From assembly GCA_036630325.1 (NCBI GenBank), contig CP142731.1, positions 1,116,001-1,180,000 on the forward strand: a stretch of 64,000 nucleotides of DNA, in the 5' to 3' direction. The stretch comes from Vairimorpha necatrix. Lineage: Eukaryota. Made by a program: the position numbers and the translations under genes. Shown here one piece after another: positions 1 through 64,000 of the stretch (its first letter is position 1; each line of letters opens with the position of its first letter). The notes below the pieces were generated by a model. That model searched no databases. It saw only the letters and a list, made by a program, of their open reading frames with translations, and had not been told where the DNA came from.

Positions 1-1989
1 TATCTAGAAAAGTATTAAAGCAAACTATAAAGAGGAGAGTTTCGCTTTGTCTCACATGTTATTAATGTCCTTTTGCAAACATATATAGATATATTTTAAC
101 AACTGTGAAAAATTTTGCCGAAACATATTTGTAGTTCTCAACAAAGTCTAAGAATTTCAAAGTAGAAAATTTTAAATGAATCAAATAAAATTTAACTACA
201 ATGTTTAGCTATTACGATTGGCTTTTTAGTTATAAATGTTATTAATGTTTTGTTGTGTTTCCGGTTAACTACAAGTGGGCCTTGATGATAGGTTTAATGG
301 CCATACATTGAATAATCACATTATTTGATGTTCTTATTTCTAAGACCTTGAATATAATGATATAAAATTGCAAGCTATGAAGACTTCAGATAATCTAGAA
401 AAAACAATATTAAAACATAACATAGCAAAAACTATCTAATATCTCATATTTTATTATAAAAAATATCATATTAGTTCTTATCACACTTTTTTTTATTTAA
501 AAAGTGCATATCTTAGTTTCATCTTATTATGTTAAAATAATATCAAATATAAATTAATGTTAGAATTGTTCATTTTAGCGCGTTAAATTTGCTAATACTT
601 TTATTTTACTTTCAATATATAAAACCAAGTTACAAATTATCGTCAGAATCGTTTTTCAGAAAAAATTAAATATTTGCCGTAAAGTTGTAAAAACCTTATA
701 AAATGAAAAATTAACTAAACAAGTTGTAAGAAGTGTGATACATGTCAAATCCGATAGTATCCATCTTGAGACATTAGGCTGTCTGTCTTTATATATTTTA
801 TAATAAATGAACTTATGGGTTTTGTACTCAAACAAATTGGCGATAAGGACAAAACTTCTTTTTTTAGAAATGAAAAGAAAAATGTTTCACAGAAGTTTTA
901 GAGGATTTCCTAGGGGTATCGAGGTTAAGCTTATAAACCTTTTTGAGATGGTTCATAAAGAAGATTCAAGGGACTGGATAAATTCACAACCAATAGGACT
1001 TTGGCTGGATAATTGATTATATCATTTAAAGAAAGATTTTTTTAGTATAATGCAGATAAAAATATATCGTAAACTTTCTGCTTATTGATACCTTGGGGCT
1101 CGTTTTTAATTATCTGGATAAGATGGTGGAACTAACACGCAAAGGTAATGTTCCTGGAAGTATATTTATTGCTTTTGAGTTAAAGGGGCACCCAATGATT
1201 TACAAATATTGTTCTAGTAAATAATAATGAGAATAATCTTGGGGTTACATTTACAGAGCTTTGAGTAATATGAAGCTCGAGAATGTTCGTAAATATACAG
1301 AAGTGGTGCGAGGAGACTCTCGGAGGTATATGCCCACAAAAGAAAGGTCTTGCAGAAAAATGACGAATAAACAGAAATGAATGGAAAATTTTTGTTGTTT
1401 TTTTGTTGTAAAGGGGGTCAGATAGTTGCAAAATTAAAATTAAATACCTTCCGTAAGAAATATTAGAGCCGCGAAACAGGCCACAGAGAAGAAGGAAGAT
1501 CATTAGAAAAACAATTCTAATAAATTTTTTTATATTTAATCCGTGTCGAACCTTAATGACATAAGAACAACGCTTATAGCCGCATCATAAAGCAATTTAA
1601 AAATAAAATTCAATGTAATTTTTATACAAAAGCCGATTTAAATCCGATTAGACTTCAACTGTTGCAGAATGAAAATGTTGTTAATATTTCGAAACTTAGC
1701 TCTGAGCATCAAATGAATCAAAGATAAAAACCATTGTGGAAACGATAGCTAAAATCATAATCGAAGAGATGGTAATAAAAGATAGTTTATTTTAACAAGA
1801 GATATCACAATACCATGATCATAGGACATGCGCTACTCGATAAATACAAAATAAGTTTAAGATTTGGGGATAATAGAATCTTGACAAATGGCAAAGGGTA
1901 AAGACATAGACTACAATGAAATTATCACAAAAGATGATAAACCAATACTATCACAGTTATACAAGCTGGGTAGCAAAAAAGAAACATAG

Positions 1990-2260
1990 CATCGAAAATG
2001 ATAAAAGCATTGTCCGAGCTTTGGAATTATCAGCCCTAGTGAAAGTGCATGGAGATGTCCAGTAATTTCTGCTCAAAAAAATGAAGATAACACGCTATGC
2101 GTGGATTATAGAAGACTGACTGACTCAACGACCGGAGACGCATATTCAATGCCTCAAGTATAGAATTTAAATGGCTTATAAGCCGCTACATTCTTACAAA
2201 AATGAACACTGAATCGGGATTTCATCAAATTAATGTAGCGCCGTGTGATATAAAACGCTA
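1990..2260 (+). pseudogene. Degenerate Ty3/gypsy reverse transcriptase relic (probably part of an older decayed element extending upstream)
   Basis: Manual translation gives GIISPSESAWRCPV..LCVDYRRL..DAYSMPQ and ESGFHQI, which match the gypsy RT motifs S.W.SP, CVDYR.LN and SGYHQI. Stops and frameshifts are present; boundaries are approximate. Confidence 0.7.
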
Positions 2261-2325
2261 TTTTTTATTTTTATGGTTTTTAAAAAAAAGTACCTGAAAA
2301 CCGAGAAAAGCAAAAATTTATGATA

Positions 2326-2374
2326 TGTGATATATTTGTATAATTTCTATCCCCCATTATGATAAATAAAGACA
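2326..2374 (+). repeat. 5' LTR of copy A (49 bp)
   Basis: TGTGATATATTTGTATAATTTCTATCCCCCATTATGATAAATAAAGACA, identical to 5496-5544. Confidence 0.95.
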
Positions 2375-5300
2375 TGGGGGCGATACCGAATCGTCAGTTT
2401 ACAAGTGTGGACTGTGGTCTAGAGGCCAAAAAGTTAATAAAGGAAGTTAGAAGAATAATGTATAGGTTGGAGATGGAGGAAGTAGAAATCAGTTTGTGGA
2501 AGCAGAGAATATTTATGGAAGGAAGTGAAAAAATAAAAAATTTCATGGTAGAAAGAATTAGTAAAGAGGACGAATATTATAAAATAATTGAGAAATTAGA
2601 GGAGGAAATATGTAGAGAAGAAAGAACTAAAAAAGAAGAAGAAAATAGGAGAGAACTTATGGAGGTCATAGCTGAGAATGTTAGAGAAACTGTGAGAAAA
2701 GAAATTCAAGAGAAAGATTTAGTTTTAAGGAATACAGTACAAGAAATAAGAAATAATAGGAATTGTTTTAATTGTGGTAAATTTGGCCATATGGCTAGGA
2801 ACTGCTATTTAGGAAGGAACAATAATCAGAAAAATAATAAAAAGTTTAATAAGTACTTAAATTTAGACGAAAACCAAAGTTGTAGTAGCAGTAATGATAA
2901 TAAAGAATATAAACCAAGTGGAAAGACAAAACGAGTTAAGTTAAAGGAATGTAATAATAGTGATAGAAGACATAAAGAAAGAATATATGCGAGCAATAAA
3001 GAGACGAAAAGAAGATTACTGAAGAGGGAATTTACGTTGGAAGATCTCAAAGCGGAATATGAAGAAGTTTTTAAACAAGGAGATGAGGTTATAAGTTATT
3101 GTACATTAGAGAAGTGTAAGATAGATACTCCAGAGGGTAAGAAGATAGTCAGAAAGGGACAGACGATCCCACAGGCTTTGATCAAACAGACTGAGGAATA
3201 TATTAATGATTTAGAAAATAGAAAAATTATAAGAAGATGTCTTCGGAATGGAGAAACCCAATAAGAGCGATACTTAAACCAAGTGGTGAAGTAAGAGTAG
3301 TTAGTAATTTTATAGGGTTGAATGATTTAGTCGAGAAAGACCCGTATGAGCTAACGAATATGAAAGAAATAATAAGAGCTACGCAAGGGTCGATAATATT
3401 TACTGTTGTTGATTGCAAAGAAGCATTTTACCATTTTGAAATCGAAGAAAAAGATAAACATAAGACGGCGTTTGAATTTAATAAAAAAGTTTACGAATGG
3501 AATAGTATGGTGATGGGATACAAAAATTCCCCACAGATACTACAGCGAACGATGAATAAGATTTTTGAAGATTTGCGAGGAAATGGTGTTGATGTATACA
3601 TGGACGATATAGTAATACATGCCAACAATAAACGTAAACACGATGAATTAGTAATAGAGGTTTTAGAAAGAATTAAGAGAAATAAAATGAAATTAAATAT
3701 TGGGAAAATACAGTTTAGATAAGCGGAAGTAAAATTATTAGGTGTGACGCTGAATGGAATAGACATGACGGCCGACGAAATAAAGAAAAACGAAGCCTTG
3801 GAGTATCCGGATCCAAAAACTTTGACTGAATTGAGGAGGTTTCTAGGATTGACTGGATGGTTCAGACCATTTATAAAAGATTATGCCGGGCTGACGTTGA
3901 AAATGACAGATAGTTTGAAGAAAAATGGCAATTCGTGGAAATTTACGGAAGAGATGAAAGAGGAATTTACTAAAATGAAAAATGTGTTAAGAAATATGGG
4001 AAGACTAAGGTTACCGGACTATAATAAGGAGTTCATACTAAGAACAGACGCTAGCAATTTGAGATTGGGTGCGGTGTTACTTCAGAAGAATGAGAATGGG
4101 GAATGGGTTGCTATACAATGGGCATCTAAAAAGCTAACACCTACCGAAATAAGATATGGAATACCAGAAAAGGAAATGCTTGCGATATATTGGGGCATTG
4201 ATAAATTTAAATACGAGTTAAGAGGTAGGAGATTCAAGATAGAAACGGATCACAAAGCACTGGTGGAGATAAGAAATAAACCGTTTTTCAATAATAACAG
4301 AATAAATCGTTTAATCGAGAAGATACAGGAATATGATTTTATCGTTGAATATAAAAAACCTGATGAGATGGTGGTAGCAGATGCGTTGAGTCGAATAAAT
4401 ATGGAAGAGGATATTAAAGAAATGAAAAATAAAGAGCGAACAATCAAGCAAACAGAAGGTAAATGGAAAGCACATGTTTCTTCCGAGAATGGAAAGCAAT
4501 ATTGGCAATTTGACTCAGGACGTAAAGTTGAAATACCACCTGAGAATATAAGGAGACAATTAATCCAAGAATATCATGAAAAAGTAGGCCACAGATGCAT
4601 GACAAGTGTTTATTATGCAATGAGAGAAGAATACTATTGGCCAGGAGTAAAGAAAGAAATAAACGAGGTTATAAAACAGTGTCAGAAATGTCAGATATAT
4701 AACAGGAAAAATATGGGTGGTTGTGAATTTGTAGATACGTCGAGATACTTAAAGAAGGTTGCATTAGATTTGATAGACTTTAGAAATGAGAAGAAATATG
4801 TTTTAGTTGCTATCGATTATTTTACACGTAGAGTATGGGGAGTAGTTATAAATAACAAGTCAAGTAATAATGTTGTTGGATTTTTGAAAAGATTATGTGA
4901 GCAAGGGAAGAAACCAGAAGAAATTATTACAGATAACGGGAAAGAGTTTATTAACGTGGAATTTAGAAAATTTTGTAGAGATCTCGATATAATACACCGA
5001 CAAGTAAGTATAGAAGCGCATAGAAGTAACGGAAGAGTAGAGCGTGTTATAGGAACTTTGAGAGAAAGTATTTTAAAGTCGGATGCGAAAACTTTTGAAG
5101 GTAAAGTGTATAAAAGTATCGATATATATAATCAGAGCTATCATACGGGAATAAAATGTACACCATTAGAAGCGACTGAAGATAAAACTGGAGACGTAAT
5201 GCTTGAAAATAGCCCTATAGGGAAATATTGTAATAGGTTTGGAAAGGGAAAGATCGAAAAATTTAATAAAGGTCAATTGGTAAGAATAGCTAAACGAGAA

Positions 5301-5471
5301 AATTTAGCAGGTATTAATAAGTATGAAAAAGGAAGATTTTTGGATACAGGAAAAATTGTTGAAAAGTGTGGAAAGGATTCTTATATTGTAAAACTTAGTA
5401 ATGGTAGGCCTGTGAAGAAGAGACATTATGACCTGAAGGGTATGCTTGGGGTAGATGTGAAAATTAGATGA
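2359..5471 (+). pseudogene. gag-pol of copy A (CCHC knuckle, RT YMDD, RNase H TDAS, integrase HHCC/DDE), disrupted
   Basis: Three ORF pieces (2359-3264, 3237-3722, 3744-5471) are collinear with the intact ORF of copy B. There is a frameshift near 3237 and an in-frame TAA at 3720-3722 where copy B has Gln. Confidence 0.9.
2375..2392 (+). promoter_or_regulatory. Primer binding site, tRNA-Pro-like
   Basis: TGGGGGCGATACCGAATC lies directly after the LTR. The TGG-G-GGC start resembles known tRNA-Pro PBSs, and the first 13 nt are identical in copy B. The tRNA identity is inferred. Confidence 0.75.
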
Positions 5472-5495
5472 GACTAACCGTCTTGAGGGGGGGGA

Positions 5496-5544
5496 TGTGA
5501 TATATTTGTATAATTTCTATCCCCCATTATGATAAATAAAGACA
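5496..5544 (+). repeat. 3' LTR of copy A (49 bp)
   Basis: Exact repeat of 2326-2374, preceded by the PPT and followed by the TSD TGATA. Confidence 0.95.
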
Positions 5545-5959
5545 TGATATTTTAAAAAAACCCCAAAACGACAAAAAAAATCTTTAAATTTTAGGCATCC
5601 TTTGTTTTCTAGCCTTGCCTAGTATAAGACTACAAAAATAAAACTGGAGTTTTTTTACTGTACTGGACGGCGTTGCTCTTGTGATTTTGTTGGAGCAAAG
5701 CTATATAATATGGAAAAAGTAAAGGAAAGATTAGTATATAGTTGTATAAAACGAAAATGGAGGGCAAAAAACAGATTTTTTTGACATTAAGTTATTGCAG
5801 AAATTTATTTTTTGTTTTGCTCTCGATTCTTTGTCTAGCAAATAAAGATTAATTTTTAGTCTAACGGGTATGACAAATCTAATATTTTATAAATAAGCAT
5901 AAAAAAAAGGAAACATATTGGAAAGACACTGGAAAATAGTTAAAAAATCGGCCGATTAA

Positions 5960-6310
5960 AGAATCAAAATTAAGTTGATACGATTGTATTGAGCAGAAGA
6001 ATAAATTTTAGAGCTTCATCTAGAGCTGATGATGAAATTAAAGATACTGTTTGGATTTTGGGGTTGTTAGAAGTAGTAAATAAAAAAATTGTATAGTTCA
6101 AGTCTTAGATCGGAAGAAAAACATTTGATAAGAATAAAAGAAGATATAGTCTTAAAAGCCAGTTCTTATTTCTGATTGCTATCTGAGTTAACCTGGTGTA
6201 GCAGCAAATCTTAATCTTAAACACATTTTTAAAAATTATTTAATGGAATTTACTCTATAAGAGCAGATAATACCAAAAACATTGAAAATTTTTGGTATGA
6301 TTAGAAATTA
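5960..6310 (+). pseudogene. Merlin/ISXO2-like (IS1595 family) transposase relic
   Basis: RASSRADDEIKDTVWILGLLE and SDCYLS*PGVAANLNL align with DDIITDTVWILGIVE and SDGHPSYLSVAQNL of the 25.3-26.3 kb element. Confidence 0.7.
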
Positions 6311-7028
6311 TTAATTGGTCCGGAGTAAAACGGTGGATTTCGATATAGATTTTAGATTTTACTATAAGAAAAAATAAATAAAATATGTAAGTAATAACAT
6401 GGAGCCCGATATTTTATATTTTTATTAAATTATTTTTGATATTTTTCTTCAATTGTTGCTGGTTCATTTTTTGGAAACCGTAAAACAGAGAATCTTCGAT
6501 AAAACAGTATTTAAATAATCTTCACACTTTCTATTATGACACATTTCAATATTTTTTTAGCTGTGCACGTCTGTATAACCTTTGTAAATTTGATTGTAGT
6601 AAAAACTATTTCTTTCTTTCTTGAGGCGTTTATATCTTTCACAGAGGATAGAATGTTCTCTAGGCGTAATGTTAACTATTGGGGCTATAATAGCGGTTAA
6701 CTCTAATATAATTAATAACAGTCTCGAGTTAACTACTCTAAATCGAAAAATTCTCTTAGATCTCAAAATTAGACTGCACAAGACACTTAATTAACTTTTA
6801 AATAATTCTTTTAGCCAAAAAAAATGTTTTTTGTATTTTTTATTTATATTTTAATACTATTTTATTTGAGGCTTCTGGCTTTTTATATAAATTATCTTGT
6901 GTTTTATAGTGTATAGACCCCTACAATACCATATTTTTTTTCTGTTGAAATACTTTCCGATCTAAAAAATTCAAAACTCGATTCTGCCATTTTAAAAAAC
7001 GATCGAAGATCTATGTAATATTTCTAAA

Positions 7029-19969: not shown

Positions 19970-22900
19970 ATGAGTTCAATTTCTGAAATTTCCGAATCTT
20001 CAACTGACAGCACTAGTAGTGAAGAACAAGTTATTAGAAGAAGAGGCAGACCAAAGAAATGGGATGCGCAAATTGCTAAACAACCTGTAAGAAGCAATAA
20101 TGTACTGTATGAAGCACCACTGGGCTATTATTATGTACAACCGCAAGGGAATAAAGTACTTTATGTTAATCCACTAGTACAAAGGGGCTTTTATAACACT
20201 TTTAATGTACCACCATCACAAGCTCTAAATATAAATAGCATGTCAAATATAAGCTTCTATCAGAATATACAATCTTCAAATATGTTTGTACAACCAAAAC
20301 AATATCCAAAACAAGTAAAACCAAAAAGAGAAGAAAGATATAATTATGTACCAGAAAAAAGAACAAAGAGAGCAGCAGCGACTACGGCCATAAGCGCAGG
20401 AAGAAGAGATGATATAAATAATGACGACTGGGAACCAGAAATAGAATATGAAGAAGAAGACGCTATAGAGAAATTATTGAAATTTGATGAAGAGACAAAT
20501 TCTTACTTAGTTAAGTTCAGGTATAAAAGTTATTTACACTGCGACTACGTAAAAAAAGAAGAAATTTGTAAAACAAAAGGAGGAGCAATAAAAGTCAAGA
20601 GATTTGTTCCGCCTTTGGAACCTTTTGACCCGGAATTTATAAAAGTAGACCGAGTTTTACATGAAGATTTTAGAAATGGGAAAATTTATATTGTAAAATG
20701 GAAGAAACTTCCTTACGAATTGAGCACTGAAGAATACGCTGAAGATTTACTTAAATGCGAAGGATTTGAAGAAGAATTAAAAAAATATAGAGATAGAAAA
20801 AAAATCAGAGTCATGAGATATGGCCTGGATTGGAGACCACCAAGGGAATTACAAGTGAAATTTGAAGAGAGTCCAGTTTATAAAGGAAATAATAAACTAA
20901 GAGCTTACCAATTAGAAGGGTTAAATTGGCTACTAAATCGATGGTATCATAAAATTAGTTGTATAATGGCGGACGAAATGGGACTGGGTAAAACTGTCCA
21001 ATCTGTCGTATTTGTCAATAGCCTTTTTACTAAATTTGAATACAATGGGCCTGTGCTCATTGTGGCGCCTTTGAGCACTTTGGTCCACTGGGAAAGGGAA
21101 TTTTTAGCTTGGACAGATTTGAGAGTCTTGATTTATCACGGAAGTATACAAGGCAGGAGTATGATAGCAGAATACGAATTCTTTATAAAAGGCGGGTCTA
21201 ATAAAGTAGGCTTATTTGATATAATGATCACTACTTACGAAATGGTAATGGCTGGTTTTGATCACATTTCTCAATTTAACTGGTCGGCTGGAATATTCGA
21301 CGAGGCGCACAGATTGAAAAATGCCTCGTCAAAAGCGGCGTCAACTCTGAGAAATATAAATTTTAATCATAAAGTACTCCTAAGTGGTACGCCTTTACAG
21401 AACAATATAAGTGAATTGTGGGCTTTATTAAACTTTATAAATCCTGTAGAGTACAATGATAGTGCGAGATTCCTGGCTTCTCATAAATTGGAAGATATCG
21501 CAGACGTAGAGAAACTTCAAGCTTTGTTGCGTCCTCTGATGTTACGAAGAATGAAAGAAGATGTAGAAAAAACTATACCTATGAAAGAAGAAACAATCGT
21601 GGAAGTAGAACTGACAATGATCCAGAAAAGATATTACAGGGCGATCTTGGAAAAAAATTTAGATTTTTTGACAAAAGGTCATAAAGATTCTGCGCCTAAT
21701 CTACTGAATGCTATGATGGAACTAAGGAAATGTTGTATACATCCTTACTTAATAAACGGAGCAGAAGAGAAAATTATAGGAGATTTCTTAAAAAGAAAGA
21801 AAAAAGAAAATGTCGAATCTCCTGTAGTCGAGACTGGAGATCTTTCTGATTTAAATATTCCTGTAATTTCTAATACTCAGAAAATCGTCATAGGTAATGA
21901 TCTCATTACTGATATTGACGAATATTATAAAATTCTTATACAAAGTTCAGGGAAACTCGTCTTACTAGACAAATTACTAAATAAACTTTATGGTCATCAT
22001 AAAGTACTCATTTTTTCGCAGATGACGAAATGTCTCGATTTATTGAGCGAGTACCTCGCTTATAAAAAATATAAATTTGAAAGAATCGACGGAGGAGTCA
22101 GAGGAGACCACAGACAAGCCGCTATAGACAGATTTAGTGACGTAAATAGTGATGGATTCGTATTTCTACTTTGTACTAGAGCAGGAGGAGTTGGTATAAA
22201 TTTGACTGCTGCTGATACAGTCATAATTTTCGACTCGGATTGGAATCCACAAAACGACTTACAAGCTCAAGCGAGATGTCACAGAATTGGTCAAACTAAC
22301 GAAGTAAAGATTTATAGACTTGTAACAAGAAACACTTACGAAAGAGAAATGTTCGATAAAGCAGGTATGAAATTGGGACTAGATCGGGCAATATTACAAA
22401 AAATGACATTTGAAGGACAAAAGAACGAAAAAGTAAAGAAAAAAGATGCAATCGAAATGTTATTGCGTAAAGGTGCGTATGGCGTCTTAATGGAAACTGA
22501 CGAAGCAAGTAAAAAATTTTGCGAAGAAGATATTGATCAAATTTTAGAAAGACGAACTAAAGTCATAAAACATTCTGACGGAGGAAATGCATTTTCTAAA
22601 GCATCTTTTCAAGTTGATGAAGAAATTGATGATCCATTTTTCTGGGAAAATTTATTAAGTAAAAAACGAAACGAAGAAAATGAAGGCAGAGTAAAAAGAC
22701 AAATGCGAAGAATTGCTAGAGATGAAACATTAAATGAGGAACAAATCAAAGATGTAGAAAAATATTCTAATTTGCGACTTGAAAATGAAGAAGAATTTTC
22801 TGAATTTTTAATTTTAAAAATTTTTATAATTTGTCTGGCCGATGGATTGGGCCCACTTGGGCTGAGTTTTAATGGACCAAATTTGGAATTAAAAAAGTCT

Positions 22901-23788
22901 ATGACTGCAAATTTACTACTAAAAGATAATTTGTCTCATAATTTAGGACCTAAAGATTTAGAAGATCTAAAAAACAAGGACATTTTACTACATTTTAAAT
23001 ATTTAGTAAAATATCTAGTAGATCAAATAATAAATCAGAAATTGAGATCTGATTTCTCATATTGTCTTGATCAAGTACTAGATGAGAACTATGACCCGAG
23101 TTTATTTGACAAGTATAAAGATTTTTATACAAAATATAATGAAAAATGCTTGTTAAGAATACAAATTTTATTTTTAACAAATTTATTACTGCAGACAGAG
23201 ACAATAAACGTGGAAAAGACAAGAGGATGGAGTTTAGAAGACGATAAGAAACTGGTAGAATGTTTATTTACTAATGGATATGGTAAATATCCAGAGAAAA
23301 TTAAAAATAAGTCAGACGACGAATGCAATCAAAGATTAAGAAAAATTATTAGTACATTAAACAGAATGAGAGAAATGGCAGAGGCGGATAGTGTGAACTA
23401 TAAAGCTATAATGAAATTTGGTAGGGTGACTGAGCATAACGAAGACAATGTCTTGAAATATTTAGGAGACAGAGATTTAAATTCTTTAAGAGAAAATATT
23501 ACGAATATTTTGAACACGACAAGGAGGACGAGATCGCAGAGCGACACGGAATGTTATGAACGAATAATGTTTTTTGATAGATTGTCTGAAGTAGGCGACA
23601 TATCAAACATAAGAAAAGTCAATTTACCGCGAGGGTGGACTAAAGAAAAAGACTCAATGTTGAAAGAACATTTATTGGAAAAAGGATTAGTAAATGTAGA
23701 AGAAGAATTTGGTATGACAGAAGAAGCCTGCATTAAAAGGTGTGAGACGATTATAAAAAGCCTAAAAGAGAAATCGGTGGAAGAATAA
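19970..23788 (+). CDS. CHD-family chromodomain SNF2 chromatin-remodelling ATPase (1272 aa)
   Basis: AT-hook RRRGRPKK; tandem chromodomains (YLVKFRYKSYLHC, YIVKWKKLPYELST); ADEMGLGKT, DEAH, SGTPLQN and DSDWNPQNDLQAQARCHRIGQ. The FCEEDIDQILERR..FSKASF segment is CHD6-9-like. Confidence 0.96.
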   Translation: MSSISEISESSTDSTSSEEQVIRRRGRPKKWDAQIAKQPVRSNNVLYEAPLGYYYVQPQGNKVLYVNPLVQRGFYNTFNVPPSQALNINSMSNISFYQNIQSSNMFVQPKQYPKQVKPKREERYNYVPEKRTKRAAATTAISAGRRDDINNDDWEPEIEYEEEDAIEKLLKFDEETNSYLVKFRYKSYLHCDYVKKEEICKTKGGAIKVKRFVPPLEPFDPEFIKVDRVLHEDFRNGKIYIVKWKKLPYELSTEEYAEDLLKCEGFEEELKKYRDRKKIRVMRYGLDWRPPRELQVKFEESPVYKGNNKLRAYQLEGLNWLLNRWYHKISCIMADEMGLGKTVQSVVFVNSLFTKFEYNGPVLIVAPLSTLVHWEREFLAWTDLRVLIYHGSIQGRSMIAEYEFFIKGGSNKVGLFDIMITTYEMVMAGFDHISQFNWSAGIFDEAHRLKNASSKAASTLRNINFNHKVLLSGTPLQNNISELWALLNFINPVEYNDSARFLASHKLEDIADVEKLQALLRPLMLRRMKEDVEKTIPMKEETIVEVELTMIQKRYYRAILEKNLDFLTKGHKDSAPNLLNAMMELRKCCIHPYLINGAEEKIIGDFLKRKKKENVESPVVETGDLSDLNIPVISNTQKIVIGNDLITDIDEYYKILIQSSGKLVLLDKLLNKLYGHHKVLIFSQMTKCLDLLSEYLAYKKYKFERIDGGVRGDHRQAAIDRFSDVNSDGFVFLLCTRAGGVGINLTAADTVIIFDSDWNPQNDLQAQARCHRIGQTNEVKIYRLVTRNTYEREMFDKAGMKLGLDRAILQKMTFEGQKNEKVKKKDAIEMLLRKGAYGVLMETDEASKKFCEEDIDQILERRTKVIKHSDGGNAFSKASFQVDEEIDDPFFWENLLSKKRNEENEGRVKRQMRRIARDETLNEEQIKDVEKYSNLRLENEEEFSEFLILKIFIICLADGLGPLGLSFNGPNLELKKSMTANLLLKDNLSHNLGPKDLEDLKNKDILLHFKYLVKYLVDQIINQKLRSDFSYCLDQVLDENYDPSLFDKYKDFYTKYNEKCLLRIQILFLTNLLLQTETINVEKTRGWSLEDDKKLVECLFTNGYGKYPEKIKNKSDDECNQRLRKIISTLNRMREMAEADSVNYKAIMKFGRVTEHNEDNVLKYLGDRDLNSLRENITNILNTTRRTRSQSDTECYERIMFFDRLSEVGDISNIRKVNLPRGWTKEKDSMLKEHLLEKGLVNVEEEFGMTEEACIKRCETIIKSLKEKSVEE

Positions 23789-35688: not shown

Positions 35689-38600
35689 TGTATTTATTTA
35701 TCATAATGGGGGTAAAAATTATCAAAATATATAACATCCCCCCTCCAAGACGGTTAGTCTCACTTTATCCTTAACCCAAGCAGACTTTTTAGATCATAGT
35801 GCCTTTTCTTTACATATCTTCCATTTACTAACTTAACTATATAAGAATCATTGCCACATCTCTCTATAATTTTCCCACTCTCTAAAAACCTACCTTTCGA
35901 ATATTTATCCGCACCTTTCAAGTTTTCCTTCTTAGCTACTCTCACGTACTCACCTACTTTAAATTTTTCCCTTTTCCCCCTGTTAAACAGTTTTCCATAT
36001 TTCCCTTGTGGGCTATTTTCAATCATTACATGTCCAGTTTTATCCTCTGTCGCTTCTATTGGTGTACATTTTAGTGCCGTGTGGTAACTCATATTATATT
36101 TTTCAATGCTTCCCATGACCTTCTCTGCAAATGTACCTTCTTTAGTCTTCAGAATGCTCTCTCGCAGCGTACCTATAACCCTCTCGACTCTGCCATTACT
36201 CCTGTGTGATTCGACACTTACTTTCCTATGTTTAATTTCTAGTCTGTTACACAACTCTCTAAACCCCTCATTGATAAATTCTCGCCCATTATCCGTTATA
36301 ATCTCTTCGGGCTTTTTTCCTTGTTCACACAACTTACTTAAAAATTCTGTCACATTCTTTCCAGTCTTGTTCTCCATTACCGTGCCCCATACTCTTCGAG
36401 TGTAATAATCTATCGCAACCAATACGTATTTACCTGCGTCTCTAAAATCAATGAGATCCAAAGCAACCTTTTCTAAATAACGTGTAGTATCTACAAACTC
36501 ACATCCACCGAGTCTTTTTCTATTATATATTTGACATTGTACACACTTTCGAATTGTCTCATTTATGTCTTTCTTTATTCCGGGCCAATAAAATCTTTCC
36601 CGCATCGCGTAATATACACTTGTCATACATCTATGTCCAACTTTTTCGTGGTATTCCTGCATCAAACTTTCCCTTGACTCTTCTGGTGGTATCTCGACTT
36701 TCCGTCCTGAATCAAATCTCCAATATTTTTTTCCTTCTGCGTCATCGACGTGCGCTTTCCATTTGCCCTCTATCTGCTTGGCGGTCCTTTCTCTGATTTT
36801 CTTTTTCCTTTCATCGTCTTCCATATGTATCCTGCTTAACGCGTCAGCCACCACCATTTCTTCTGGTTTCTTATATTCTATGGTGAAGTCAAATTCCTGG
36901 ATCTTTTCAATCCATCTATTTATTCTATTGTTATTAAAACACGGTTTATTTCTAATCTCAACCAAGGCTTTATGGTCCGTCTCGATTTTAAACTTCCTAC
37001 CGCGCAACTCGTATTCAAATCTTTTTATCCCCCAAAATACCGCGTACATTTCTTTCTCCGATATAGTATATCTGGTCTCTGTAGGTGTTAACTTTTTTGA
37101 ACTCCATTGGATTGCTACCCATTCATCTTTATCGTTCTTCTGAAGTAACACGGCTCCTATCCCTACATTGCTCGCGTCCGTTCTCAATATAAATTCCTTC
37201 CTATAATCAGGCAATCTAAGTTTCCCCATCGCTCTCAAAACTTCTTTCAGCTCTAAAAACTCTCTATTCATTTCAACCGTCCATTCCCACTTCTTATCTT
37301 TACCTCTCAAGCTATCTGTCAGATGAATAGTTAATCCCGCGTAATTCTTTATAAAGTTCCTAAACCATCCTGTCATTCCTAGGAATCTTCGTGTTTCACT
37401 TACACTTGTCGGCTGCGGGAATTCTAACGCCTCGTTCTTCTTTATTTCATTCGCTTCAATATCTGTACCATTCAATGTGACTCCTAAGAGCTTAACTAAC
37501 TGTTGGCTAAACTGTATCTTCTCAATATTCAATCTCATTTTATGTCTTTTTAATCTTTCCAATGCTTCTATAACTAGCTTGTCATGCCTTCTTTTAGTTC
37601 TAGCGTGTATAACGATGTCGTCCATATATACCTCCACTCCTTCTCCTTGTAAATCTTCAAATATTTGGTTCATTATTCGTTGTAATATCTGCGGGGAATT
37701 TTTATATCCCATTACCATACTGTTCCATTCATATACCTTTCTGTTAAATTCAAAGGCCGTTTTGTGCTTATCCTCTTCTTCAATCTCTACGTGGTAAAAG
37801 CCTTCCTTCAGATCTATAACGGTAAACCATTTAGACCCCTGTGTGGCTCTAACGATGTCCCTAATATTTGACAACTCATACGGATCTTTTTCAACTAAGT
37901 CATTTAAACTCATTAGATTACTTACAAGCCTTACTCCTCCGTTAGGTTTTACTATAGCTCTAATTGGGTTTCTCCACTCGGATGTTGATCTTCTTATAAT
38001 CTTTCTTTCTTCCAAACTTTTTATATATTTTTCAGTTTTTTCCATCAACGCCTGTGGGATAGTTTGTCCTCTTTTAACTACTTTTTTTCCTGGTGGCGTC
38101 TCAATTTTACATTTCTCTATCTTACAGTGTACGATCTCTTCGTGCTGCAAGTCAAAAATTTCTCTAAACTTCGCTTTTATATCTTCAATGACAAGGCCCT
38201 CTTCTATTCTATCCTCTCTCATTCCTCTCCTTTTTGAATTTTGTTTACGTTTTGCTTCTCCGCATTTCCTATATTCTTGTGCGCTAAGTTCTGTGCTTGT
38301 TGATCCACTCTCTTCATGAACCCTTAAATACTTGTTAAAATGTTTATTTTTATTATCTTCTTCTTTCCTCTTCCTTACGAAGCAATCTCTTGCCATGTGC
38401 CCGAATCTACCACAGTAAAAACAATCTCTACTTCTTACTCTCGTAGTTTCTTCCCTTATTTTTCCTAATGCTCCTCTATTTGCCAGCTCCTCTCGAACTG
38501 TTCCTCTAACCGACTCTGCAATTATTTCCATCATCTTACTTTTGTCTTCTTCTTCCTTCTTTTTTAATTCGTCCTTTCTAACCTCCTTTTCCATTTCTTC

Positions 38601-38863
38601 AATAATTAAGGACCAACTATCTTCTTTTTTAATTCTTTCTACCATAAAGTTCTTTACTTCTTCCGAACCCATTTCATAAATTCTTGCCTTCCATAGAGAC
38701 TCATCTACTCCATCCAACTCTAGCTTATAAACTATTCTTTTAATTTCTTGTAACATTATTCTGGCCTCTTGACCACAGCCATCACTTGTTGACTCTCGAT
38801 TTGGTATCGCCCCCATGTATTTATTTATCATAATGGGGGTAAAAATTATCAAAATATATAACA
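35689..38863 (-). mobile_element. Ty3/gypsy LTR retrotransposon, miniature protease-less type, copy B (3175 bp; intact)
   Basis: Identical 48-bp LTRs at 35689-35736 and 38816-38863; TSD TAAGT at 35684-35688 and 38864-38868; PBS TGGGGGCGATACCAAATC at 38798-38815; PPT GGAGGGGGGA at 35737-35746. Confidence 0.98.
35760..38831 (-). CDS. Single gag-pol polyprotein (1023 aa): short gag, CCHC knuckle, RT, RNase H, integrase
   Basis: CFYCGRFGHMARDC; IDLKEGFYH and YMDD; TDAS and ADALSR; H-x4-H..CxxC; ALDLID, ITDNG and RVERV. The start is placed at the CCCCCATTATG shared with copy A. Confidence 0.95.
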   Translation of the reverse strand: MINKYMGAIPNRESTSDGCGQEARIMLQEIKRIVYKLELDGVDESLWKARIYEMGSEEVKNFMVERIKKEDSWSLIIEEMEKEVRKDELKKKEEEDKSKMMEIIAESVRGTVREELANRGALGKIREETTRVRSRDCFYCGRFGHMARDCFVRKRKEEDNKNKHFNKYLRVHEESGSTSTELSAQEYRKCGEAKRKQNSKRRGMREDRIEEGLVIEDIKAKFREIFDLQHEEIVHCKIEKCKIETPPGKKVVKRGQTIPQALMEKTEKYIKSLEERKIIRRSTSEWRNPIRAIVKPNGGVRLVSNLMSLNDLVEKDPYELSNIRDIVRATQGSKWFTVIDLKEGFYHVEIEEEDKHKTAFEFNRKVYEWNSMVMGYKNSPQILQRIMNQIFEDLQGEGVEVYMDDIVIHARTKRRHDKLVIEALERLKRHKMRLNIEKIQFSQQLVKLLGVTLNGTDIEANEIKKNEALEFPQPTSVSETRRFLGMTGWFRNFIKNYAGLTIHLTDSLRGKDKKWEWTVEMNREFLELKEVLRAMGKLRLPDYRKEFILRTDASNVGIGAVLLQKNDKDEWVAIQWSSKKLTPTETRYTISEKEMYAVFWGIKRFEYELRGRKFKIETDHKALVEIRNKPCFNNNRINRWIEKIQEFDFTIEYKKPEEMVVADALSRIHMEDDERKKKIRERTAKQIEGKWKAHVDDAEGKKYWRFDSGRKVEIPPEESRESLMQEYHEKVGHRCMTSVYYAMRERFYWPGIKKDINETIRKCVQCQIYNRKRLGGCEFVDTTRYLEKVALDLIDFRDAGKYVLVAIDYYTRRVWGTVMENKTGKNVTEFLSKLCEQGKKPEEIITDNGREFINEGFRELCNRLEIKHRKVSVESHRSNGRVERVIGTLRESILKTKEGTFAEKVMGSIEKYNMSYHTALKCTPIEATEDKTGHVMIENSPQGKYGKLFNRGKREKFKVGEYVRVAKKENLKGADKYSKGRFLESGKIIERCGNDSYIVKLVNGRYVKKRHYDLKSLLGLRIK

Positions 38864-61087: not shown

Positions 61088-64000
61088 ATGGTGGTAACGA
61101 TGATGAGGATAAGAGCGATGATCTCGACAACATCCTTTCTCAAATGAAAAAACTATGTCTTCAGAACAGATGGTTAGAATTTACCGGCGAAGATCTAAAC
61201 AAAGCCGAAGACTTTCTGTCTCAATTTCGAGAAATTGAAGATGTTTACTCTCAAGCGAAGACGCTAGATATTGCCAAGTCAAAACTAAAAGGCAAAGCGT
61301 TGAAATGGTTTAAAGCTTTTGAGGGCGAGGAGATTGTAGATTACGAGACATTCAAATCCCACTTTAATAAAAAATACCTTAAAAAAAAACTAGTGGAAGA
61401 CGTAACAGATCTATTCATGCATCTATACGTAGAGGGTCCGAAGGAAAGCGACATCTTGAGTTACGCTTATGACCTAAAAAGGTGTGCTAAAGGAAGCATT
61501 GAGCACTTTGAGAGATCTAAGATTGCGATTGGAAGAAACTCCCCCGAGATATTAAAGGAGGCGATCAGTGAAACCAAAGAGTGGATAGAGTTACTTGAAC
61601 TCGTAGAAGAAAAGGATTTTTTAATAAATAAATACCTAAAGAAAAGGAAAACTTTTTATAAAAAGTCACAGAATGAAGTAACCTGTCAAGAAATGAAAGA
61701 ATATAAAACTGTCCCCAAGAAAGCAGTACAGACAAATTCTTCATTAATTCTAAAGATAGGTAGAGTGGCTAAAAACGATAATTTTTCGGATGTCCGAGCA
61801 AGGATTAATTTTTTTTCAGGGAGAGAAAAGATTGCTGCGCTCATTGACACGGGAGCAGAAATTAATTGCATTAATAAAAAGAAAGCCCAATTATTGGGTC
61901 TGAATCCAAGAAAAGAGACGCTGAATATAGTAGGAGTGGGCGGTACAGTGAAATCAGAAGGCATAGTGGAATTTAGTGTCAAAGAGCCTAAAACTAAGAA
62001 ATCAAGAATAGTAGAAGCACATGTAGTAGCAAACTTACCAGAAGACCTTATTATTGGCCTCGCAGATGTTCTAAATCTGAACTTACTCAAAATTCTTGAT
62101 AAGATGAGAAATGCGTTAATAACGAAATCAGTCTGCACAACAACTCCCGAAGTACTCGAAACTCAAACTGTAGACGTCGGAGAAGAAGACACGGCACAGG
62201 AGGACAAAGAAAAATTTAATAAACTTATCTCAAAGTATCCAGCTGTTTTCTACAATAATGATTTAAAATCAAGCTTAGATATTGAACACGCCATAGAAAT
62301 AACAAATGACTTTTCGGAAGTAAGAAATATTCAATACAGAAGATCTCCAGAACAAAACGAGATTATTGAAAGTAAGATTCAAGAGTTTTTGAGTAAAGGA
62401 TTTATTGAGAACAGTGAATCAGACTATACTTCCCCGGTGGTTCTTGTCAAGAAACCTAATGGTGATATTAGATTTTGCATAGACTATAGAAGGTTGAATA
62501 AAATCACAAAGAAGATGATCTATCCTATTCCACTTGTAGAAGAAACTATAGAAGAATTACAAGGAGCATCTATATTTACAGTATTGGACTTGGAATCTGG
62601 GTACCATCAAATAAGAATTCGGGAAAAAGATAGATATCTTACAGCTTTTAGGAGTAGGACAGGAACGTTTCAATGGGTTAGGATGCCATTTGGACTCGTG
62701 AATGCACCCTTTACATTCCAGAAGATAATGAATTCTATACTGTCTCCGTACCTACATAAATTTGTACAAGTATATCTAGACGACATTATGATATACTCTA
62801 GATCGATTGAAGAGCACGTAAAGCACATTGAAGCAGTTTTTGAAATTTTAAACAAATTGAAATTGAAAGTTAATCACAAAAAATGTAAAATCGGAAAGAA
62901 TACGGTAAATTTTTTGGGATATACGATAAATAAGAATGGAGTAAGTATACCACTTGAGCAACAGACGAAATGTCTTAATTTAAAAATCCCAGCCACTCTT
63001 AAAGAAACTAGAGCCTTTATTGGGTTCATAAACTATTTTAGAAAATTTATAAGGAATTATACAGATATAATGGCTCCTATCTATGACTGCTTGAAGAAAG
63101 GTAAATTTAAATTTTCTGAAGAAGCAAAACAAAGTGTAGGGAAAATAAAAGAAATTATTACGAGCTCTCCCGTTCTCAAGTTACCGGACTTCAATAAGAG
63201 ATTTATCTTATACACAGATGCATCCAACCTTTACATAGGAGCAACACTGATGCAAAGATACGAGGAGACTGAAATGCCCGTATATTTTATCTCAAGGAAA
63301 TTAAATACTGCTGAAATTAATTACACCGTAACCGAAAAGGAATGCTTGGCAATAATATGGAGCATATCCCAGTTCCGGATTTACCTAACAAATACTTTTA
63401 CAATTCGAACAGATCATCAAGCCCTCAAATGGCTGCTGAGTTATAAAGAGAGCACTGGTAGATTAATGAGATGGATTCTCACACTCGAAAACTACTCATA
63501 TGACATCGAATATATTAAAGGCAAAGAGAACATTATAGCGGACGGACTAACGAGATTTGTTCATGTAGTAAATTATGAAGATGAACTAGAATTATCGGCC
63601 GAGAGTCGTAAAGAAATGATTTTAAAATGTCACGAAGAGTGTGGACATGGCAGTATTTATCCAACATATGCTTTAGTTCTCGATAAAACAAAATGGAAAG
63701 GTATGTACGCAGATATTAAACAGGAACTCGAAAAATGTCAGGTGTGTCTAAAATTTAATTTAAAAAGAACACCAAAGCAACATCATAGAATTCGACTCAA
63801 GGACCCATTTTCACTGATAGGAATTGATATGGTAGGTCCTCTACCTAAGTCGGAAAATGGGAAAACATATTTAATAGTCGCCACGGATTATCTAACAAGA
63901 TGGTGCGAAGCAAAAGCCGTAAGAAATAAATCGGCTAAGACGGTAGCTAAATTTATTTTTGAAGAAATAGTATGTAGACATGGTCCGCCCAACGAATTAC
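60949..64000 (+). CDS. Ty3/gypsy gag-pol polyprotein with protease (partial, runs off the window; absent from the ORF track)
   Basis: Open frame 1: gag LKGKALKWF, protease ALIDTGAE (DTGA at 61846-61857), RFCIDYRRLN, MPFGL, YLDD (62773-62784), YTDAS, RTDHQAL, integrase H..GH..CQVC and GIDMVGPLP. Confidence 0.93.
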   Translation, partial: MFFGGKILYIFPPTNIKEIHAQKGMKDNKKYGLKHSSRSVGKPTDHNGGNDDEDKSDDLDNILSQMKKLCLQNRWLEFTGEDLNKAEDFLSQFREIEDVYSQAKTLDIAKSKLKGKALKWFKAFEGEEIVDYETFKSHFNKKYLKKKLVEDVTDLFMHLYVEGPKESDILSYAYDLKRCAKGSIEHFERSKIAIGRNSPEILKEAISETKEWIELLELVEEKDFLINKYLKKRKTFYKKSQNEVTCQEMKEYKTVPKKAVQTNSSLILKIGRVAKNDNFSDVRARINFFSGREKIAALIDTGAEINCINKKKAQLLGLNPRKETLNIVGVGGTVKSEGIVEFSVKEPKTKKSRIVEAHVVANLPEDLIIGLADVLNLNLLKILDKMRNALITKSVCTTTPEVLETQTVDVGEEDTAQEDKEKFNKLISKYPAVFYNNDLKSSLDIEHAIEITNDFSEVRNIQYRRSPEQNEIIESKIQEFLSKGFIENSESDYTSPVVLVKKPNGDIRFCIDYRRLNKITKKMIYPIPLVEETIEELQGASIFTVLDLESGYHQIRIREKDRYLTAFRSRTGTFQWVRMPFGLVNAPFTFQKIMNSILSPYLHKFVQVYLDDIMIYSRSIEEHVKHIEAVFEILNKLKLKVNHKKCKIGKNTVNFLGYTINKNGVSIPLEQQTKCLNLKIPATLKETRAFIGFINYFRKFIRNYTDIMAPIYDCLKKGKFKFSEEAKQSVGKIKEIITSSPVLKLPDFNKRFILYTDASNLYIGATLMQRYEETEMPVYFISRKLNTAEINYTVTEKECLAIIWSISQFRIYLTNTFTIRTDHQALKWLLSYKESTGRLMRWILTLENYSYDIEYIKGKENIIADGLTRFVHVVNYEDELELSAESRKEMILKCHEECGHGSIYPTYALVLDKTKWKGMYADIKQELEKCQVCLKFNLKRTPKQHHRIRLKDPFSLIGIDMVGPLPKSENGKTYLIVATDYLTRWCEAKAVRNKSAKTVAKFIFEEIVCRHGPPNEL

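Follow-up and report, generated by a model that had tools for sequence, protein, structure and literature searches.

The long terminal repeats (LTRs) of retrotransposons usually measure about 80-100 bp at the lower end of their size range. In the microsporidian Anncaliia algerae, the element retro L is listed with an LTR of 50 bp, an open reading frame (ORF) from 32 to 3049 and a total length of 3127 bp (Parisot et al., 2014, Supplementary Table S1, PMC4202319), and retro S has an LTR of 45 bp (PMC4202319). By our own count in the same source, the ORF start coordinate is smaller than the LTR length in 43 of the 50 complete A. algerae LTR-retrotransposon consensus rows (PMC4202319). The literature on the shortest LTRs, in the extracts consulted, gave no figure below the 45-50 bp of this table, and no record is claimed here. 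PMC-numbered sources are drawn on throughout in extract. The present analysis concerns a Ty3/gypsy-type LTR retrotransposon of 3219 bp, here called copy A, which occupies positions 2326-5544 of a 64,000-nucleotide stretch of Vairimorpha necatrix DNA (contig CP142731.1, positions 1,116,001 to 1,180,000 of the forward strand; hereafter the window). Copy A is probably a recent, coding-defective copy of an ultra-compact element whose LTR would serve as a host-like promoter, as the repeat (R) and unique 5' (U5) regions, and as the start of gag. On the same explanation, which we favor as a whole, its clade consists of elements of about 3.0-3.2 kb that encode one gag-reverse transcriptase (RT)-RNase H-integrase polyprotein without a protease.

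The 5' LTR of copy A (2326-2374, plus strand) is 49 bp long, reads TGTGATATATTTGTATAATTTCTATCCCCCATTATGATAAATAAAGACA, begins with TG and closes with CA at 2373-2374. It is identical to the 3' LTR (5496-5544, plus strand), and this 49-mer occurs exactly twice in the window with 0 mismatches, against 0 occurrences expected from 100 shuffles. The A/T box TATAATTTCTAT followed by CCCCC (2351-2355) spans 2339-2355 on the plus strand and is a putative promoter with the layout of a host core promoter. The LTR ATG (2359-2361, plus strand), likely the gag start codon, follows 3 nt after CCCCC, and an AATAAA (2365-2370, plus strand) of uncertain polyadenylation, or poly(A), role overlaps the codons I-N-K. 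Directly after the LTR, beginning with TGG, lies the putative primer-binding site (PBS) TGGGGGCGATACCGAATCG (2375-2393, plus strand), the first 13 nt of which are identical in a second copy described below. We take it to resemble proline-tRNA-type PBS sequences; a tRNA gene scan of the window and of the metagenome loci L001-L004 found 0 genes. The frame opened at 2359 translates MINKDMGAIPNR and reads through the LTR end and the PBS, the latter as (M)GAIPNR. The coordinates proposed in an earlier sequence-only reading of this DNA for the LTR, CCCCC, ATG, AATAAA, CA end and PBS were therefore right base for base, as was its claim that the PBS is protein-coding in frame with the LTR ATG.

Downstream, the gag frame (2359-3264, plus strand) contains a CCHC knuckle, runs into the N-terminus of RT and ends at a frameshift at about 3237-3264. 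The RT/RNase H/integrase frame (3237-5471, plus strand), whose domains were assigned by homology with the second copy, is broken at an in-frame stop at 3720-3722, leaving pol sub-frames at 3237-3722 and 3765-5471. A conserved block, GAGACTAACCGTCTT, and the polypurine tract (PPT), GAGGGGGGGGA, together occupy 5470-5495 on the plus strand; the block is kept in all four aligned elements, and the PPT (5485-5495) abuts the 3' LTR directly. The element thus has the structural marks of an LTR retrotransposon, namely terminal repeats of the TG...CA type, a PPT, a short target-site duplication (TSD) and a precise empty site.

The boundaries were examined in contigs of four public runs aligned to window positions 1500-6500; these are contigs only and carry no read starts, ends or strand. 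The TSD, TGATA (5 bp), flanks copy A on the left at 2321-2325 and on the right at 5545-5549. A contig of run X2 represents the empty site, in which 2326 is joined to 5554 with TTTAA between and a single TGATA is present. It differs from the uninterrupted target solely in the length of an A run, and its depth is 14.7 compared with about 26 in the flank. Other contigs of runs X1 and X2 match the window up to 2374 (X1) or 5545 (X2), that is, to the 3' end of an LTR, and then diverge from it, which fits the flanks of other copies or insertions. These two kinds of contig indicate that the element boundaries are right and that the insertion is missing in at least one sequenced haplotype or strain. 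As part of the favored explanation, copy A was probably inserted recently.

A BLAST search of copy A against the window located the second copy, copy B, at 35689-38863 on the minus strand (3175 bp). It had been named in the sequence-only reading and is real; it reads MINKYMGAIPNR. Its LTRs are 48 bp long (38816-38863 and 35689-35736) and its TSD is ACTTA. BLAST identity between copies A and B is 72% across 2446 nt and 69% across the first 553 nt. The best conserved part of the pair begins at CCCCC and ends with nt 13 of the PBS, and 1 of its 37 positions differs. Copy B has a single intact gag-pol frame of 1023 aa, which runs from the LTR ATG at 38829-38831 (LTR position 33) down to 35760 on the minus strand. 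The Pfam domains along it are zf-CCHC (148-161), RVT_1 (305-464), RT_RNaseH (553-658), Integrase_H2C2 (726-782) and rve (802-880). This order of RT, RNase H and integrase, together with a CCHC gag, is that of Ty3/gypsy elements (Metaviridae). The named relatives of the polyprotein come from V. necatrix (87% identity), Nosema granulosis and Enteropsectra breve.

Host genes of microsporidia have a characteristic start region. In Nosema ceranae, a C triplet preceded by a T run is usually found no more than 15 nt from the start codon, and the triplet is over-represented at -10 to -3 (PMC2685015). In Encephalitozoon cuniculi, 5' untranslated regions (UTRs) are shorter than 7 nt, with a CCC-like motif right before the start and an AAATTT-like signal further upstream (PMC2803860). 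The window has sparse genes and a GC content of 22-38%, and we compared the LTRs with its 12 ORFs of 150 aa or more that do not belong to transposons. A CCC lies within 20 nt upstream of the first ATG in 8 of these ORFs, a GGGG in 1 and neither in 3 (examples are tttttattatatacccctaaaATG and ggattttttacgcccctaaaATG), and the background CCC rate is 0.0038 per base per strand. The promoter-like stretches of the LTRs are tataatttctatCCCCCattATG in copy A and gataatttttaCCCCCattATG in copy B, with the layouts TATAATTTCTAT-CCCCC-ATT-ATG and GATAATTTTTA-CCCCC-ATT-ATG, respectively, so that CCCCC stands at -8 to -4 of the LTR ATG. That the host genes here share a CCC-near-ATG layout, and that the LTR contains a promoter-like motif, had both been suggested from the letters alone. 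Both suggestions agree with our results, as the order of T-rich box, CCCCC, 3 nt and ATG is the published start-associated layout of Nosema and Encephalitozoon. The LTR closely matches the host core promoter layout, and this match suggests that the LTR promoter fires.

The same organization was found in other members of the family. The metagenome locus L003 has LTRs of 39 bp at 540-578 and 3664-3702 (TGTTGTATGTGAATAAATAACCCTTAATATTATATGACA), a TSD of TTATA and the PBS TGGCACCCAGTC; the metagenome locus L004 has a 3' LTR of 49 bp (TGTTAAGTATTATTAATAAATTTTTACCCATGAAATTGTGTATTTCACA), and L002, on its minus strand, carries the 5' LTR that corresponds to this 3' LTR, and a PBS. All five LTR types begin with TGT, continue with an A/T box and CCC (CC in the decayed L002 copy) and end with ACA. 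The distance from CCC to the LTR end is 16-20 nt across the family LTRs, and G-rich tracts stand at the place of the PPT in copy B, L003 and L004. In 13 relatives, the full-length polyprotein ORF spans the contig of 3035-3159 nt except for 25-100 nt. Contigs filled to this degree fit family-wide tiny LTRs and almost no non-coding sequence. A pattern scan of viral contigs gave 16 matches, with 0 relatives of the element among them.

The block upstream of the PPT is a further feature of the family. It has the form GAGACT(0-3 nt)CCGTCTT, lies directly upstream of the PPT and hardly varies among four elements whose identity elsewhere is about 50-72% (window 5470-5484 and, on the minus strand, 35746-35760; L003 at about 3641-3653; L004 at about 3197-3211). 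It could form a small GAC/GTC hairpin, the stem of which is invariant and hence gives no covariation by which the structure could be judged. In 4 of 18 aligned sequences, the polyprotein frame continues through the PPT into the 3' LTR, and the block is then read as ETxxRLEGD.... A role of GAGACTAACCGTCTT as a second tRNA-binding segment, as in Ty3, was considered and dropped, because the block is the same across different PBS types.

From this anatomy, we infer the following mode of expression and replication for the element. Each LTR of 39-50 bp would combine the TGT...ACA integrase ends, a host-type mini core promoter (A/T-rich box and CCC) and a tail of 16-19 nt that acts as R/U5 and as the first five gag codons at once. 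RNA polymerase II would initiate at most a few bases downstream of CCCCC, in keeping with the very short leaders that are the rule in the host, and the ribosome would start at the LTR ATG and read on through the LTR end and the PBS. At the 3' LTR, the transcript would pass the point equivalent to its start and end in the last LTR bases or a few bases into the flank. The minus-strand strong-stop DNA of about 16-19 nt would then anneal at the 3' LTR and copy U3 (the unique 3' region), and read-through into the flank would be harmless.

The choice of the gag start codon is complicated by a second ATG. As the LTR ends with CA and the PBS starts with TGG, an ATG always forms at their junction, and in copy A it consists of the last LTR base and the TG of the PBS (2374-2376, plus strand) and is in frame. 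The N-termini of the 43 closest relatives (E ≤ 2e-144) were compared, and 25 of them are readable. Sixteen of the 43 show the arrangement M-x(2-5)-M-[G/A], such as MINKDMANTRNK, MNINVHMASATK and MIQVDHMATVVY, and one more (P0038) has it behind a longer upstream extension. Two others (P0017 and P0043) have an LTR-type methionine (Met), but H/D-G-T at the junction. The remaining sequences are six that start at the junction, discussed below, and 18 that are N-truncated or too divergent, including P0015, for which a match to the pattern was dropped because the N-truncated protein begins close to the zinc knuckle. In 19 of the 25 readable N-termini, a Met thus stands 3-7 codons ahead of the junction, compared with 6% expected in a simulation with window composition, a figure to be read with the caution that these are related sequences rather than independent events and that gene callers prefer the longest frame.

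The subfamily of P0017, P0043 and L002 is decisive on this point. On the minus strand of L002, homology to P0043 residues 1-168 begins exactly at the LTR ATG (tblastn, E 5e-19) and continues past the LTR end and across the PBS as far as the zinc knuckle, whereas the junction ATG, 19 nt downstream of the LTR ATG, lies in a frame riddled with stops. Only the LTR ATG can therefore serve as the start there. An interpretation of the LTR ATG of L002 and L004 as an out-of-frame upstream ORF was rejected, because tblastn shows that it is in the gag frame. Moreover, translation of the PBS type TGGCACC... gives M-A-P in some members and H-G-T in others; evidently the primer constrains the PBS sequence, and the protein has adapted around it. 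PBS types other than that of copies A and B read as MANTRN, MAPS, MATAAK and MASA. In part of the family at least, the protein comparison thus bears out the proposal that the start codon lies in the LTR and that the PBS is translated. For copies A and B, the host rule favors the LTR ATG (2359 in copy A) over the junction ATG, so that gag probably begins in the LTR there as well.

Alternatively, gag might start at the junction ATG, with transcription beginning at or after the LTR ATG or with the LTR ATG being skipped, and the LTR Met would then be a by-product of a conserved cis sequence (R/U5 or the integrase site). The CA|TGG junction makes this ATG automatically and in a good context (G at +4), the codon is in frame in 23 of the 25 readable relatives, and E. 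cuniculi transcripts can begin at the ATG itself (PMC2803860). Several observations count against the favored explanation, and some of them support a start at the junction directly. Six of the 43 proteins start at a junction-type Met (MGAQPNK, MANTRKK, MATVAKN), and in the decayed L003 the interval between CCC and the junction contains a TAA but no ATG in frame; together, these six of the 25 readable N-termini and L003 indicate that the LTR ATG is not universal. In addition, the 5' UTRs of Edhazardia aedis, as far as the source consulted goes, are about 180 nt long, so short leaders are not universal in microsporidia. Copy A itself is coding-defective, with one frameshift and one in-frame stop. 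The AATAAA lies upstream of CCC in L003, L004 and retro L of A. algerae and downstream of it in copies A and B. On the other side, a start at the junction is contradicted by the P0017/P0043/L002 subfamily, in which gag homology opens with the LTR ATG and the junction ATG falls in another frame. Relative to the junction ATG, CCC stands at -23 to -19, whereas host genes have it at -10 to -3, and in-frame LTR Mets are far commoner than chance would give. A gag start at the junction ATG is unlikely in our view.

If gag starts in the LTR and the PBS is translated, R and U5 together would be at most 16-19 nt, and a transcription start within 3 nt after CCCCC would give the same length. The sequence-only reading, which put this length at about 15-25 nt and polyadenylation at or beyond the LTR end, had seen a puzzle for canonical strand transfer here. 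The puzzle is not real, since the R region measures 10 bp in Sire and 11 bp in mouse mammary tumor virus (MMTV) (PMC3601003), and a poly(A) site past the LTR would leave just an unpaired 3' tail. Likewise, integrase specificity is confined to the terminal 8-15 bp (PMC3601003). Given that AAUAAA lies about 20 nt before the cleavage site (PMC2803860), cleavage in copies A and B would fall about 10-20 nt past the LTR, and the RNA would contain the whole 3' LTR and a little flank. Strong-stop DNA would pair with the internal R and extend into U3, while the flank tail would stay uncopied; U5 would shrink to nothing, and canonical transfer would not be violated.

The AATAAA had also been read as a poly(A)-like signal with a 5' copy that must be ignored. 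As a dedicated signal it is doubtful, because its position is not conserved among the LTR types and because in copies A and B it forms the codons I-N-K, which may be all that the downstream AATAAA reflects. In the other LTR types, if the upstream AATAAA is the poly(A) signal, it would lie in U3 and be missing from the RNA 5' end, leaving no 5' signal to ignore. Retroviral promoter-proximal poly(A) sites are known to be suppressed, and in copies A and B, where the AATAAA would lie 6-11 nt from the cap and have to be passed over, a comparable event is plausible. It is also plausible because microsporidian poly(A) signals show stochastic recognition and frequent read-through (PMC2803860).

Another possibility is that so small an LTR lacks its own promoter and that the element is transcribed by read-through from neighboring host promoters, the CCC/ATG layout being incidental. 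Pervasive run-on transcription has been described in microsporidia (PMC2803860; PMC2685015). However, RNA that starts upstream of the LTR would give strong-stop DNA ending in the flank, which would not pair at the 3' LTR and would not allow propagation, whereas recent transposition is evident from clean TSDs, from the empty site and from numerous nearly identical contigs. CCC (CC in one decayed copy) also follows an A/T box in all five LTR types and in the retro L consensus. We therefore regard transcription by read-through as improbable. Finally, CCCCC, ATG and AATAAA might be functionless chance features of an AT-rich repeat, which may hold for the AATAAA, given that AATAAA and ATG are common at 27% GC and that the AATAAA position varies, but is very improbable for CCC and ATG, since CCC is rare (0.0038 per base) and yet occupies the same relative place in the LTRs of elements about 50-72% identical, the stretch from CCCCC to the PBS is the best conserved part of copies A and B, and the frame is kept across the family.

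For retroelement biology, the greater surprise is that a clade otherwise intact and recently mobile apparently lacks a protease. Between gag and RT of copy B, no aspartic protease family was detected even at E ≤ 10; copy B has no other sense frame of at least 50 aa, and 5 antisense frames gave no match. The linker from the knuckle to RT is 50-121 aa long, and D[ST]G occurs in 1 of 18 aligned sequences, at an unconserved spot. Protease Pfam domains were found in 0 of 43 close relatives compared with 13 of 45 distant matches, and a different gypsy element in the window (60850-63999) has a protease. These results suggest that the whole clade lacks an aspartic protease. The polyprotein, of roughly 118 kDa, would then function as an intact chain, or a host enzyme or the protease of another element would cleave it.

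Further observations were made in the public runs and in the neighborhood of copy A. The summed contig depth of run X2 is 20,000-54,000 at 2335-2835 (the first 500 nt or so) and about 49,500 at 5341-5507 (the last 170 nt or so), compared with 50-400 in the middle of the element and about 26 in the flank; this uneven depth is not readable as expression. It may reflect a very abundant short deletion derivative with both ends, or something else, between which contig depth cannot decide. Some contigs of other copies in X1 and X2 have a PBS G run that is 1 G shorter (2376) and a PPT G run that is 2 G shorter (5487), and the loss in the PBS would shift the gag frame downstream of both ATGs. In the bat gut metagenome X3, 4 short contigs fell on the pol region (1 at ≥99% and 3 at 95-99%), and in the freshwater metagenome X4, 2 did (both ≥99%), which indicates that the element or a close relative is present in environmental samples. 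Just upstream of copy A, at about 1800-2250 on the plus strand, lies a decayed Ty3/gypsy pol with RT-type peptides such as CVDYRRLTDSTTGDAYSMPQV, stops and frameshifts, so copy A landed in or beside an older element. Elsewhere in the window, 19970-23788 (plus strand) holds a host gene that encodes a CHD-like chromodomain helicase of the SNF2 family (Chromo, SNF2-rel_dom, Helicase_C) and has cccct right before its ATG.

Tentatively, the clade may represent the minimal autonomous LTR retrotransposon. At 3.0-3.2 kb, it would have LTRs of 39-50 bp made up solely of the integrase ends, about 20 bp of core promoter borrowed from the host and an R of at most 19 nt that doubles as the initial gag codons. 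The protein frame would cover the PBS and, in part of the family, also the PPT and the beginning of the 3' LTR, and a protease would be absent. If this is true, LTR size would be set by the size of the host promoter, and the family would be a natural test of the minimum sequence needed for reverse transcription and integration. The elements illustrate how far an LTR retrotransposon may shrink where host promoters are tiny, as one repeat of 39-50 bp appears to give integrase sites, promoter, terminal redundancy and protein start. The family also offers defined predictions for the transcription start site, the poly(A) site, the strong-stop length and the N-terminal peptide. The default minimum LTR length of LTRharvest is 100 bp, as in standard LTR finders. 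With this default, such elements will appear in annotations as no more than isolated "reverse transcriptase" or "endonuclease" genes, which is the case for the named Vairimorpha and Nosema matches.

The word "LTR" is absent from the V. necatrix genome paper. In the extracts covered by our literature search, promoter mimicry, R length and protease loss were not discussed, subscription papers such as Xu et al. (2006) being outside its scope, and the portions consulted of the main text of Parisot et al. (2014; PMC4202319) mention just the single polyprotein and are silent on the small LTR, promoter, R length or missing protease. Several known elements share features with the family. MMTV and the plant Sire/Retrofit elements differ from it in having LTRs of hundreds of bp and a large U3. 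In the yeast Saccharomyces cerevisiae, the GAG start of Ty1 lies in the 5' LTR. The PBS of Ty1 lies inside the GAG ORF (PMC4974528), similar to copy A; however, Ty1 is of copia type (Pseudoviridae), and 5.9 kb long, its LTR is much longer, and it encodes a protease and keeps GAG and POL in separate frames. The Nbr elements of Nosema bombycis (cited in PMC2474625) are microsporidian, come from the same host clade and encode a Ty3/gypsy polyprotein, but are described as having the order Gag-protease-RT-RNaseH-integrase, whereas the clade described here has no detectable protease. Other A. algerae Ty3/gypsy elements also have a single polyprotein, but their LTRs are mostly 105-272 bp and their total lengths 3.6-4.3 kb, with LTRs of at most 50 bp in 2 of 50 (PMC4202319).

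Retro L is among the closest known elements and has the same architecture. Its consensus starts with TGTTATAT, contains AATAAATA-CCC-ATG, ends with AACA followed by TGGCG, and by eye its protein begins M-x5-M-A-S-K, as in the family here; it differs in host genus, in PBS type and in having the AATAAA upstream of CCC. Copy B has the features of the retro L type, namely one gag-pol ORF, an LTR of about 50 bp, an ORF start within the LTR and a length of about 3.1 kb, with sequence relatedness judged by eye. The architecture is thus not new: it represents extreme genome compaction that has been catalogued for A. algerae but little discussed, and the element described here is an additional member of that catalogued kind.

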